DNA of 64,000 nucleotides from Gammaproteobacteria bacterium (GTDB lineage Bacteria > Pseudomonadota > Gammaproteobacteria > SURF-13). Where the stretch lies: positions 23,997 through 87,996 of the forward strand of contig JACPZD010000024.1 of NCBI GenBank assembly GCA_016195665.1, in the 5' to 3' direction. This document shows positions 51,614 through 53,493 of this stretch, piece after piece. Each line of letters begins with the position of its first letter. The stretch's first letter is position 1. The notes below the pieces were generated by a model. That model was given only the letters and a program-made list of their open reading frames with translations. It was not told the origin of the DNA and ran no database searches. The position numbers and the translations under genes were made by a program.

Positions 51614-52210
51614 GTGATGCAGGCCAACGTGCCTGCATTATATAAACACTGTGCGTGGCCCATGTTGTCGTCCCGTCATCTTGTCCAATTGCTCAACGAC
51701 TGCGCGCGCGGCGACAGCCAGGCCTTGGCGCGCCTGTATCGGGCCACGGCCCCGCAACTATTCGCCATCGCGCTGCGTATAGTACGCAGACGGGATAGTG
51801 CGGAGGATGTCTTGCAGGAGAGTTTCGTCAATATTTGGAATCATGCGCGGGAGTACCGGGAGGATAAGGGCGCGCCGCTCGCCTGGATGACGACCATCGT
51901 GCGGCATCGCTGCATAGATAGCCTGCGGCGGCTCCAGCATGAGAATCTTGCGGACGATAATATAGATGAGGAGCAGTGGCCCGACCCCGATCCCACGCCC
52001 CTGGAGCAACTGGTGCGTCACCGCGAGGGCGTGCTGTTGCGCCAGTGTCTGGAGGGCTTGCAAGCTAAACAGCGTGACAGCATTGTGCTGGCCTATTATC
52101 ACGGACTTACCCACGAGCAATTGGCGCGTCACATGAACTGCCCGCTCGGCACCATCAAGAGTTGGGTGCGGCGTGGCCTCGAAGCACTCAAAGGGTGTCT
52201 CGAACGATGA
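51614..52210 (+). CDS. ECF-family RNA polymerase sigma factor
   Basis: Sigma-70 region 2 (AEDVLQESFVNIWNHAREY) and region 4 (LTHEQLARHMNCPLGTIKSWVRRGL). Alternative start at 51662. Confidence 0.85.
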   Translation: MMQANVPALYKHCAWPMLSSRHLVQLLNDCARGDSQALARLYRATAPQLFAIALRIVRRRDSAEDVLQESFVNIWNHAREYREDKGAPLAWMTTIVRHRCIDSLRRLQHENLADDNIDEEQWPDPDPTPLEQLVRHREGVLLRQCLEGLQAKQRDSIVLAYYHGLTHEQLARHMNCPLGTIKSWVRRGLEALKGCLER

Positions 52211-52896
52211 ACTACGGCGATCCACGCTTGCGCGAATTGCTGGCCGGCGAGTATGTGCTGGGGACCCTGCACGGCGCCGCGCGGCGGCGCTTTGAGCGCC
52301 TGCTGCGCGAGGATGCGCGGCTGCGCATGATAGTGGTGGATTGGCAGAGCTATTTGCAACCGCTGGCCGAGGCGATTCCGCCCGTTGCGCCGCCGGAGCG
52401 GGTTTGGCAACGCATACAACAACGCATCACCCCACGCAAGGTGCGCCCTGGCCTCTGGCGACGCCTGGAGTTTTGGCGGCCGGCGGGTCTCATGGCCGGG
52501 GCCTTGGCGGCGGCCTTGCTGATTTACATCGGCTTGTTGCCGCCCACCCCGGTCGCGCCGGGTTATATCGCCGTACTGAGCGACACGGCGGCGCGCCCGG
52601 TTTGGGTGGTGAGCGTGGCGCAGGCGACCGGCGAACTGACCATCAAGGCCGTGCAGCCCGAGCCGGTTGCGCCGGACAAGGCCTTGGAATTGTGGGCGCT
52701 GCCCAAGGGTCAGCCGCCGCGCTCGCTGGGTCTGCTGCCCGCGAGCGGCGTCAAGACCGTCGCGTTGAGCGGGCCATTGCATCAGATCCTGGCGAGCGCC
52801 ACGGCTCTCGCGGTCAGTCTGGAGCCGCGCGGCGGTTCGCCCACCGGCCAGCCGACCGGGCCAGTGCTGTATCAAGGGCCGTGGCTGGCGTTATAA
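52207..52896 (+). CDS. membrane anti-sigma factor (RskA-like) cognate to the upstream ECF sigma
   Basis: ATGA overlap with the sigma gene; LLAGEYVLGTL N-terminal anti-sigma motif; one TM helix (LMAGALAAALLIYIGLL); periplasmic C-domain. Confidence 0.8.
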   Translation: MNYGDPRLRELLAGEYVLGTLHGAARRRFERLLREDARLRMIVVDWQSYLQPLAEAIPPVAPPERVWQRIQQRITPRKVRPGLWRRLEFWRPAGLMAGALAAALLIYIGLLPPTPVAPGYIAVLSDTAARPVWVVSVAQATGELTIKAVQPEPVAPDKALELWALPKGQPPRSLGLLPASGVKTVALSGPLHQILASATALAVSLEPRGGSPTGQPTGPVLYQGPWLAL

Positions 52897-52988
52897 GGCT
52901 GCATCCAAAATCTGTACTCTCCCGTAATAGCGACGGTGTCACAGTAATTATCAACATGTCCATTAACTTACTATCAGGAGAGAAAAAC

Positions 52989-53432
52989 ATGAACACTTCA
53001 ATGAAGCTCATCGCCTCGGCACTGGTTGTGCTGGGCATGATTCTGGCCGGCTGTGCGGAGACCATGCAAAAACCCAGCGCGAGTCTCTATGATCGTCTGG
53101 GCGGCAAGGGCGCCATCACTGCGGTGGTGGATGACTTTATCGGTAACGTCGCGGCAGACAAACGCATCAACGGTCGTTTCGCCAACGCCAACATCCCCCA
53201 TCTGAAGGAAAAGCTGGTTGAGCAGATCTGCGCCGGTAGCGGCGGCCCCTGCACCTACACCGGCCTGGATATGAAGACCGCCCATGCCGGGATGAAAATC
53301 ACCGATGCCGAGTTCGGCGCACTGGTGGAAGACCTGGTGAAGACCCTCGACAAGTTCAAGGTGCCCGCGCAGGAGAAAAACGAACTGTTGGGCATACTCG
53401 GCCCCATGAAGAAGGATATCGTGGGCGTTTAG
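52989..53432 (+). CDS. group I truncated haemoglobin with lipoprotein signal peptide (predicted periplasmic)
   Basis: [22 protein letters not shown] lipobox, then LYDRLGG...[14 protein letters not shown] trHb fold; paralogous to 50213..50572. AGGAGA SD 8 nt upstream. The 363-aa track ORF is an artefactual extension. Confidence 0.8.
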
Positions 53433-53449
53433 CACAAGACCGTAGTAGT

Positions 53450-53493
53450 ATTCAGACCGCCCTGTTGCAGTGACTGCAACAGGGCGGTTTTTT
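53450..53493 (+). terminator. rho-independent terminator ACCGCCCTGTTGCAG-TGA-CTGCAACAGGGCGGTTTTTTT
   Basis: Perfect 15-bp stem and 7-T tail directly after the trHb lipoprotein gene. Confidence 0.85.

Follow-up and report, generated by a model that had tools for sequence, protein, structure and literature searches.

In the 64,000-nt stretch of a gammaproteobacterial genome analysed here (the window), the genes for an ECF sigma factor, an anti-sigma factor and a truncated haemoglobin, followed by a terminator, make up one unit on the plus strand (51585-53496). By sequence comparison, the sigma factor, its membrane anti-sigma and the exported, lipid-anchored haemoglobin are a conserved unit, in which the globin looks like a direct and widely conserved sigma target rather than part of the sensor. 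We consider it probable that the locus encodes an autoregulated SigK-like sigma factor of the ECF18/19 clade, an RskA-type membrane anti-sigma and, as their direct target, an exported haem globin that is the output of the response and not its sensor. No description of this family of exported, mostly lipid-anchored truncated haemoglobins was found, and the family appears new to the searchable literature: our searches, with most subscription papers outside their coverage, returned no account of truncated haemoglobins as lipoproteins, as periplasmic proteins or with a signal peptide and, within the same coverage, no link between ECF sigma factors and globins and no globin target of ECF18.

The genes, their ATGA overlap, the lipobox and the terminator reported in the first-pass annotation of this DNA were all found where it had placed them. 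The features of the unit are as follows.

51585..51611, plus strand: P1, predicted ECF18-type promoter of the sigma/anti-sigma operon, ACATCC (-35)-N16-CGTAT (-10)
51618..51637, plus strand: 7-bp hairpin TGCAGGC-CAACGT-GCCTGCA (inverted repeat I8) in the 5′ leader predicted for the sigma mRNA
51662..52210, plus strand: ECF sigma factor, 182 aa, SigK-like, with Cys129 and Cys179 (Pfam Sigma70_r2 and r4_2)
52207..52896, plus strand: single-pass anti-sigma factor, 229 aa (Pfam RskA_C 5e-21; NCBIfam anti-sigma model 3.6e-28)
52901..52927, plus strand: P2, predicted ECF18-type promoter of the globin gene, GCATCC (-35)-N16-CGTAA (-10)
52976..52982, plus strand: ribosome-binding site AGGAGAG, read from the sequence, 6-8 nt 5′ of ATG 52989
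52989..53432, plus strand: truncated haemoglobin of group N, subgroup 2, made as a 147-aa prolipoprotein (Pfam Bac_globin 6e-15)
Globin residues 1-21, plus strand: signal peptide, before lipidation-site Cys22 (lipobox rule)
53052-53054, 53229-53231, 53250-53252 and 53283-53285, plus strand: globin codons for Cys22, Cys81, Cys88 and the proximal His99 (F8), respectively
53454..53496, plus strand: intrinsic terminator closing the unit, with a 17-bp stem (53454-53490), a 3-nt loop and U7

The sigma product has regions 2 and 4 only, as judged by Pfam (Sigma70_r2, 8e-19, residues 25-92; r4_2, 6e-14, residues 125-176). Its best solved relative is Mycobacterium tuberculosis SigK (4NQW; E 1.7e-23), to which it is about 30% identical and with whose redox cysteines C133 and C183 its Cys129 and Cys179 align. 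The NCBIfam SigK subfamily model reaches 4.6e-43 on this protein yet remains below cut-off (SigK-type models score 140-148 bits against cut-offs of 226-265 bits); the cysteine pair, the RskA-type partner and the promoter motif would place the protein, as SigK-like, in the ECF18/19 clade. Translation most likely begins at ATG 51662, the start chosen by gene callers on identical contigs, rather than at GTG 51614 as previously annotated: the -10 element of the conserved promoter occupies 51607-51611, so that transcription would start after 51614, which speaks against the GTG.

Directly 3′ of the sigma gene, and overlapping its stop codon by ATGA (52207-52210), lies the RskA-like anti-sigma gene. 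Its product comprises a cytoplasmic helical domain (residues ~6-74), a transmembrane helix (~87-111, with the hydropathy peak at 93-111) and a periplasmic RskA_C β-sandwich (~120-225). The AF2 model has a pLDDT of 84 overall and above 90 in the β domain. A fold search with this model gave weak matches to Ig-like or Cu,Zn-SOD-like β-sandwiches (E >= 4e-3, TM <= 0.4), which are silent on any ligand, and the N-terminal domain had no match among solved structures.

The closest known arrangement is M. tuberculosis SigK-RskA, which resembles the window in the cysteine pair and in the downstream gene for a single-pass RskA_C anti-sigma. The regulon of SigK includes the exported lipoprotein MPT83 and also MPT70. 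The window differs in its Gram-negative host (a gammaproteobacterial MAG) and in its target, a haem globin and not a FAS1-domain protein. SigK is autoregulated (PMC7509140), and an ECF18-type P1 before the sigma factor's own operon implies the same here. The ECF18 group, represented by Pseudomonas putida RpoT and Cupriavidus metallidurans RpoP, likewise combines an RskA-like anti-sigma with a cysteine pair (PMC7826278), and its predicted promoter, GCATCC / CGTAT in the ECF Hub (PMC13492112 Table 4), is that of P1 and P2. The ECF18 targets described are solvent efflux genes, unlike the target in the window (PMC3597554), and in the case of RpoP the predicted ECF18 promoter showed no transcription start.

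P1 and P2 form a 25-nt direct repeat (D1) and are the sole intergenic matches to (G/A)CATCC-N16-CGTA in the window. A third match (44233-44257, minus strand) lies inside a 519-aa ORF (43501-45060) and was taken as chance; a relaxed match was also seen at 14113. In two relatives (L083 and L086) P1 is identical, and two other loci (L070 and L091) have a matching site 5′ of the sigma gene. For P2, the hexamers are invariant among relatives and the spacer is variable. The proposal that the globin gene is a direct member of the ECF sigma regulon is thus supported, at the level of promoter sequence, by a conserved ECF18-type P2 that is repeated at P1. The element originally put forward as its promoter, TGTCACA-N14-GTC at 52937-52960, is present as a string and lies downstream of P2, but it is not conserved, reading TGTTGCG in relatives with a 90%-identical globin; the conserved element is P2.

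The same motif recurs before exported globin genes in other genomes. CATCC-N15-17-CGTA occurs in the 250 nt before the globin gene at 44 of 79 loci (43 of 78 other species' genomes plus the window), an enrichment of about 25-fold over the background expectation of 0.022 per 250 nt. Positive loci come from five lineages at phylum or class level: Gammaproteobacteria (including Burkholderiales), Alphaproteobacteria, Methylomirabilota, Nitrospirota and Rokubacteria. These loci share invariant -35 and -10 elements but have unrelated spacers, and the -10 element mostly stands 33-62 nt from the start codon; five further loci have NNATCC variants. The link between motif and globin is not universal, as some 30 of the 79 loci lack the motif (Cupriavidus/Ralstonia, most Nitrospira and Competibacteraceae; also L060). 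The sigma/anti-sigma/lipoprotein-globin triplet postulated from the window is kept in relatives that are 85-94% identical, though flanking genes differ, and among seven orthologues of the anti-sigma, three have an exported globin within the sigma operon and a fourth is on a contig that ends just past the same promoter motif.

An ECF sigma gene adjoins the globin gene at 13 of 80 loci, in three gene orders, and here the motif precedes both genes, standing back to back in the divergent pairs (L043, L051 and L063). Sigma factors of the divergent loci lack the cysteine pair, so more than one sigma subgroup is involved. Of these 13 loci, seven have an RskA-type anti-sigma and five a ChrR cupin (L043, L051, L044, L047 and L063); at the remaining one the anti-sigma is off the contig. 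ChrR-type cupin anti-sigmas are known from the RpoE-ChrR (ECF11) singlet-oxygen system, but the ChrR-linked globin loci have a -35 element of (G/A)CATCC or GAATCC and not the GTGATC of ECF11; the window itself is RskA-type.

These counts bear on whether the globin might act as a co-sensor, in which case the periplasmic protein would bind a gas or redox ligand, contact RskA_C and modulate sigma release, leaving P2 as feedback only. The first-pass annotation had raised such a gas-sensing accessory to the periplasmic domain of the anti-sigma, and several observations suit it: the globin stands repeatedly beside sigma/anti-sigma pairs, in triplets that close relatives retain, it is predicted to face the periplasm together with the C-domain of the anti-sigma, and what RskA-type anti-sigmas sense is not known (PMC7509140). 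We nevertheless judge it unlikely. Within 6 kb of the globin gene, about 65 of the 80 loci show neither a sigma nor an anti-sigma gene, yet the motif is widespread, and motif-positive loci mostly have no sigma gene nearby. The ChrR cupins, which have no RskA_C domain, speak against a globin that pairs with the periplasmic domain of RskA; anti-sigma orthologues also occur with no globin nearby (L091, L093 and L095), and no Cys, His or Met suggestive of a haem or ligand relay is conserved in the periplasmic domain. The broader notion that RskA-type anti-sigmas receive their missing extracytoplasmic input from the globin, in a three-component pathway of haem sensor, anti-sigma and ECF sigma, is similarly doubtful and is disfavoured as a general rule, its remaining scope being the co-directional, cysteine-pair subgroup to which the window belongs.

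The assignment to group I truncated haemoglobins with a proximal histidine is borne out by the Pfam match, by His99 at position F8 and by the AF2 model (core pLDDT 83-93), which Foldseek aligns with solved trHbN structures (1IDR and 8UGZ) at TM 0.86-0.94 and r.m.s.d. 1.1-1.4 Å, confirming a 2-on-2 globin fold at the level of the predicted model. NCBIfam has no specific model for either of the two globins in the window. A gapless 118-residue alignment with M. tuberculosis HbN gives 36-38% identity, and in the exported family (alignments A1 and A2) His99, Phe64 (CD1), RLGG(38-39) and GG(85-86)P are invariant. From the HbN alignment, the distal pocket is apolar, with Ile51 at B10, Leu72 at E7 and Leu76 at E11. 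Hydrophobic residues at these positions, as opposed to Tyr/Gln/Gln in N-1, define subgroup N-2 (PMC11904497), and by this residue criterion the window globin is a member of that little-studied subgroup.

Shewanella benthica SbHbN (8UGZ), a TrHbN-2, is the nearest comparator (TM 0.94, r.m.s.d. 1.4 Å, 37% identity) and shares the hydrophobic B10/E7/E11 residues, the consensus Phe CD1 and a cysteine at E16. Unlike the window globin, it is cytoplasmic and has neither a signal peptide nor an EF-loop cysteine; its second cysteine, at F10, is too distant for a disulfide, whereas the window globin has a C-x6-C pair. M. tuberculosis HbN (GlbN), a NO dioxygenase, has His F8 in common with the window globin, which has Ile for Tyr B10 and Leu for Gln E11 and adds the lipoprotein signal and the cysteine pair. 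The lack of these Tyr and Gln residues weakens the earlier suggestion of a NO-detoxifying globin; together with a predicted low O2 affinity, it makes an HbN-type NO dioxygenase less likely, and ligand buffering or a peroxidase-like reaction would be favoured over that classical activity.

Export is predicted with a clear signature. Within the 21 residues before Cys22, an n-region with K6 and an uncharged h-region lead up to the lipobox L-A-G-C22, in agreement with a PROSITE PS51257-style rule ([LVI][ASTVI][GAS]C, positive n-region, uncharged h-region, Cys at 15-35); the lipoprotein signal claimed at the outset is therefore present, with lipidation itself predicted. The same rule is passed by 72 of 79 homologues, four more have a lipobox-like cysteine and three a signal-peptidase-I site, such that over 90% of exported globins carry a lipobox. 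The view that an exported, lipid-anchored 2/2 globin is unusual holds against the searchable literature and fails in genomes, where the exported family comprises more than 8000 protein clusters and no fewer than 548 loci at species level. Over 363 globin domains, cysteines occupy both positions corresponding to Cys81 and Cys88 in 195, neither in 150 and only one in 18, a coupling that suggests a Cys81-Cys88 disulfide. Both cysteines are missing from the window's cytoplasmic paralogue and from M. tuberculosis HbN, as well as from the two relatives, the only such candidates, with twin-arginine-like signals.

It is also conceivable, if improbable, that the 2/2 fold has been kept without haem, the apo-globin acting as a carrier of hydrophobic ligands or lipids or as a structural envelope lipoprotein. 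Sec delivers an unfolded chain, we know of no dedicated haem b insertion system in the periplasm, and the distal pocket is wholly apolar; a further point in favour is that another gene preceded by the motif is MlaC-like and so lipid-binding. Against this, the exported family keeps His F8, Phe CD1 and both Gly-Gly hinges without exception, periplasmic haem b proteins such as Escherichia coli cytochrome b562 exist, and the lack of the cysteine pair from the twin-arginine-like relatives would fit cofactor folding before export, albeit in very few cases. Moreover, SbHbN and other TrHbN-2 proteins that bind haem normally have an apolar pocket (PMC11904497).

Strongly disfavoured, and less probable than either alternative above, is a chance motif beside a globin gene that is a mere neighbour and owes its expression to an unrelated promoter or to transcripts reading through from the sigma operon: loci without the motif (L060, Cupriavidus, Nitrospira) would agree with it, and a sigma-70 scan of both intergenic regions found no promoter, so that no alternative is evident, but the roughly 25-fold enrichment, fixed position, invariant hexamers, divergent spacers and recurrence of the motif before sigma genes stand against it.

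We propose, for the preferred reading of the globin as a sigma-driven output, that the anti-sigma holds the sigma factor at the membrane until a redox or envelope signal releases it, as would be expected from its family. In the M. tuberculosis prototype, release occurs through the sigma cysteine pair and/or proteolysis of RskA. The freed sigma factor would read (G/A)CATCC-N16-CGTA at P1, for its own operon, and at P2, for the globin. The globin pre-protein would be exported by Sec and lipidated at Cys22, with Ala at +2 predicting outer-membrane sorting by the E. coli rule, and the mature protein would be stapled by the Cys81-Cys88 disulfide and bind haem b on His99. Such a periplasmic haem protein could meet a small reactive ligand (NO, an O2-derived oxidant or sulfide) in its apolar pocket, either buffering it or carrying out a peroxidase-like reaction supplied by periplasmic electron carriers.

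The truncated haemoglobins of the matched solved structures and of the literature examined are cytoplasmic; the subfamily described here is large, carries export signals and is mostly lipid-anchored, and through it many nitrifiers, denitrifiers, sulfur oxidisers and soil Burkholderiales would have haem-globin chemistry in their periplasm. For SigK/ECF18-type sigma factors, the conserved promoter link provides a widely shared and easily assayed target gene. One member of subgroup N-2 has been characterised so far, and the locus adds a regulatory context to the search for function. A motif-driven operon in Sulfuriferula encodes a Tat ferritin-like DUF4439 protein, a DUF3034 protein, the exported globin and a cupredoxin; globin, cupredoxin and ferritin-like co-targets suggest a candidate signal, namely redox or small-molecule stress in the periplasm. 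Clustering of neighbours across the 80 globin loci, noisy owing to spurious high-GC ORFs, brought out two groups only, one of sigma genes (14 loci) and one, lineage-restricted, of tryptophan 2,3-dioxygenase-like genes.

At the RNA level, Rfam gave zero matches within the unit, and the leader hairpin at 51618..51637 is identical in L083 and L086, hence uninformative on covariation. The region between the anti-sigma and globin genes has no RNA structure or terminator (z = +1.4), so read-through from P1 would also reach the globin gene, whose ribosome-binding site has an invariant GGAG core among relatives (alignment A3). The terminator after the globin gene is as strong as first described, with a ΔG of -31.5 kcal/mol and, relative to shuffled sequences, z = -8.2.

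A unit of three plus-strand genes at 51.6-53.5 kb of the window encodes an ECF sigma factor, an anti-sigma factor and a truncated haemoglobin (the globin) and is closed by a terminator:

51662..52210 (+), sigma gene, with sigma-70 regions 2 and 4 only (Pfam 8e-19 and 6e-14)
52207..52896 (+), anti-sigma gene, RskA_C (Pfam 5e-21), its start overlapping the sigma end by ATGA (52207-52210)
52989..53432 (+), globin gene, third of the unit, Bac_globin (Pfam 6e-15)
53454-53496 (+), terminator, a perfect 17-bp hairpin with a U7 tail (dG -31.5 kcal/mol, z = -8.2)

The domain matches, the overlap and the closing hairpin bear out the three-gene unit proposed in the first-pass annotation, and neither a terminator nor a stable structure was found in the stretch between the anti-sigma and globin genes. 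The sigma start is most likely ATG 51662 and not GTG 51614, because gene callers on identical contigs pick 51662 and because the conserved promoter would place the transcription start after 51614. A 7-bp hairpin (TGCAGGC/GCCTGCA; 51618-51637, +), identical in the close-relative loci L083 and L086, lies in the predicted sigma mRNA leader, directly past the -10 element.

The longest direct repeat of the unit, CATCCAAAATC-N10-CGTA, stands before the sigma gene (51586-51610) and again before the globin gene (52902-52926); with their flanks the copies read ACATCC-N16-CGTAT and GCATCC-N16-CGTAA, respectively. The ECF Hub consensus for group ECF18 is GCATCC at -35 and CGTAT at -10 (PMC13492112 Table 4). 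Just one other match occurs in the 64-kb window, within a 519-aa ORF. Relatives with a globin 85-94% identical keep both hexamers, the ribosome-binding site and the ATG unchanged while the spacer differs. The globin promoter named in the first-pass annotation, TGTCACA-N14-GTC, is present as a string (52937-52960), yet is unconserved, TGTCACA becoming TGTTGCG in relatives.

Across genomes, 44 of 79 loci have CATCC-N15-17-CGTA in the 250 nt before the globin gene, against a background of 0.022 per 250 nt in these loci. The sites read yGCATCC-N16 (38 sites) or N17 (6 sites)-CGTAT(A), with unrelated spacers and, for most, 33-62 nt from the -10 element to the globin start codon; GAATCC, AAATCC or CGATCC variants precede 5 further globin genes. 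The loci that carry the motif are spread over Gammaproteobacteria (including Burkholderiales), Alphaproteobacteria, Methylomirabilota, Nitrospirota and Rokubacteria. Among the 79 loci, the motif was not found upstream of the globin in Cupriavidus/Ralstonia, most Nitrospira or Competibacteraceae, so the link, as read from sequence, is frequent and not universal. One locus labelled Ilumatobacteraceae (Actinomycetota; L009, CAVVBH010000040.1) is near-identical in globin signal peptide, promoter spacer and neighbourhood to two gammaproteobacterial MAG loci (L006, L007), and its contig is probably mis-binned. In 22 loci the globin is preceded at a distance of about 1.8 kb, on the same strand, by a tryptophan 2,3-dioxygenase-like gene; the one member inspected is from an uncultured betaproteobacterial MAG (L029, 1404-2261). 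This proximity is possibly inherited synteny and not a functional link.

Among solved structures the sigma factor is closest to Mycobacterium tuberculosis SigK (4NQW, E 1.7e-23), both cysteines of which align; this pair has been implicated in redox sensitivity (PMC7826278, PMC7509140). The anti-sigma model comprises a helical N-terminal domain, an Arg/Lys-rich stretch followed by a transmembrane helix (about residues 87-109) and, at residues 120-225 (52564-52881), a periplasmic RskA_C beta-sandwich modelled with high confidence. Structural matches to the sandwich are weak and Ig-like or Cu,Zn-SOD-like, the best being bacterial Cu,Zn superoxide dismutases (E 4e-3, TM <=0.4), and the domain has no conserved metal-ligand histidines. 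By analogy with the mycobacterial system, the sigma factor would be activated through a redox change at its own cysteine pair or through RskA proteolysis.

An ECF sigma gene adjoins the globin gene in only 13 of 80 genome loci, in three orders: sigma, anti-sigma, globin (L020, L060, L070); globin, sigma, anti-sigma (L044, L047); or divergent (L026, L034, L035, L043, L051, L052, L058, L063). The sigma genes of these linked loci have the motif before them as well: L070 has it in duplicate, as in the window, and L043, L051 and L063 carry back-to-back copies in the intergenic region of the divergent pair. The class of the neighbouring anti-sigma varies: RskA_C-type in the window, L020, L060, L070, L034, L035, L052 and L058, and a ChrR-type cupin protein without an RskA_C domain in L043, L051, L044, L047 and L063. 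The SigK cysteine pair is kept in every sigma co-directional with the globin (window, L020, L070, L060, L044, L047, L068) and is missing from every divergent one (L043, L051, L063, L034, L052, L058, L026, L035), although the motif is shared. With two anti-sigma classes and two or more sigma subgroups beside it, the globin therefore tracks the promoter specificity of the sigma factor and not the RskA periplasmic domain. Because of this, and because many unlinked globin genes bear the motif, the comparison favours an output role for the globin over a co-sensor role. The gas-sensing accessory of the anti-sigma first suggested is disfavoured by the same unlinked genes and by the cupin anti-sigma in 5 loci. 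The triplet order itself recurs in L020, L060, L070 and L092.

Seven anti-sigma orthologues (50-55% identity) served as starting points for a reverse neighbourhood check. L092 repeats the triplet, with GCATCC-N16-CGTA upstream of the globin. In L089 (Sulfuriferula plumbiphila; 5674-8298 of AP021884) and L090, GAATCC-N16-CGTA is followed by a Tat ferritin-like DUF4439 protein, a DUF3034 protein with a C-terminal Phe (possibly an outer-membrane barrel) and a signal-peptide globin, after which L089 adds a cupredoxin; L094 carries the same motif immediately before its contig end. The globin is absent from L091, where an unrelated lipoprotein follows sigma and RskA, from L093, and from L095, where a divergent DUF4331 gene has the GCATCC motif upstream. 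The motif precedes DUF4331 and DUF3034 in L004 and L051 also. Every recurrent co-target is an exported protein, several of them being of the metal or redox kind. Genes preceded by GCATCC/GAATCC-N16-CGTA (L089, L090, L051 8069-9520, L004 1753-3332, L095 1737-3335) comprise DUF4439, DUF3034 then globin, cupredoxin, DUF4331 (twice) and an MlaC-like gene, the non-globin members being candidate regulon members.

The globin product (147 aa) aligns without gaps over 118 residues to M. tuberculosis HbN and retains His99 as the proximal ligand (F8), Phe at CD1 and the two Gly-Gly hinges, with Ile at B10 and Leu at E7 and E11. Superposition of its AlphaFold model (core pLDDT 83-93) on 1IDR and 8UGZ gives TM 0.86-0.94 (target-normalised) and rmsd 1.1-1.4 A, in agreement with the 2/2 fold first annotated. 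The annotated lipobox also stands: 21 residues followed by Cys22 satisfy a PROSITE-style lipoprotein rule. The next residue is Ala, from which transfer to the outer membrane would follow if the E. coli +2 rule applies. An exported globin with a retained haem ligand residue and an apolar pocket is supported by these sequence features.

Exported globins are a large family. A search with the protein was saturated (7987 significant among 8000 scored candidates; top matches 60-90% identity, 142-158 aa), and a scan with one genome per species confirmed at least 548 encoding loci. The lipobox rule holds in 72 of 79 loci examined; 4 more have a lipobox-like Cys and 3 a signal-peptidase-I site. Cys81 (E16) and Cys88 (EF loop), C-x6-C, are invariant throughout the close family and absent from the cytoplasmic paralogue in the window and from HbN. 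Of 363 globin domains, 195 have Cys at both positions, 150 at neither and 18 at just one of them, the pattern expected of a disulfide made after export. Polypeptides with 2 to 12 truncated-globin domains in tandem are frequent among relatives (proteins P0121-P0156, P0010, P0012; for example P0126, 1882 aa, and P0132, 1386 aa), the majority of these domains being without the Cys pair.

The functional role of the globin is the weakest part of this account. We infer an effector in the response to redox or small-molecule stress in the periplasm. The pocket matches the signature of group N subgroup 2, a 'little-studied clade' that the Shewanella benthica SbHbN structure was the first to represent and for which low O2 affinity is predicted (PMC11904497). 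Because Tyr B10 and Gln E11 are missing and that affinity is predicted to be low, direct transfer of the HbN NO-dioxygenase mechanism is disfavoured, which weakens the NO-detoxifying reading of the first-pass annotation. The Sulfuriferula cupredoxin neighbour would suit a haem enzyme in need of re-reduction. Candidate chemistries are NO, peroxide, sulfide or O2 buffering. Every component of the unit is from a known family. The globin's cellular location, its coupled Cys pair and the conserved ECF18-type promoter before it appear undescribed in the literature searched, which takes in few subscription journals; signal peptides may already have been mentioned in globin censuses.

Other features of the window are as follows:

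22577-22768 (-), tandem glycine riboswitch, two aptamers (46.7 and 70.1 bits)
29920-29992, tRNA
49368-49441 (+), intergenic Rfam match to Xanthomonas sRNA sX9 (48.3 bits; gathering score 44), adjoining an unannotated 137-aa ORF (49428-49841, -)
50213-50572 (-), second TrHbN-2-type globin, cytoplasmic, 119 aa, 40% identical to the exported globin, without signal peptide or Cys pair
50719/50728-51435 (+), HxlR-family regulator with an SCP2-like C-terminal domain, divergent from the cytoplasmic globin
55673-55819 (+), ruvC-ruvA intergenic region, two 52-nt direct repeats, 90% identical, spaced 95 nt

The cytoplasmic globin/HxlR pair lies in a low-GC island (39-49%, the sigma and anti-sigma genes having 60-69%) and is kept in the close-relative loci L083-L085, with a HigB/HTH toxin-antitoxin pair in its place in L086. 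Short ORF translations of similar appearance occur near 49335-49566 and 54062-54253, hinting at a dispersed intergenic repeat.
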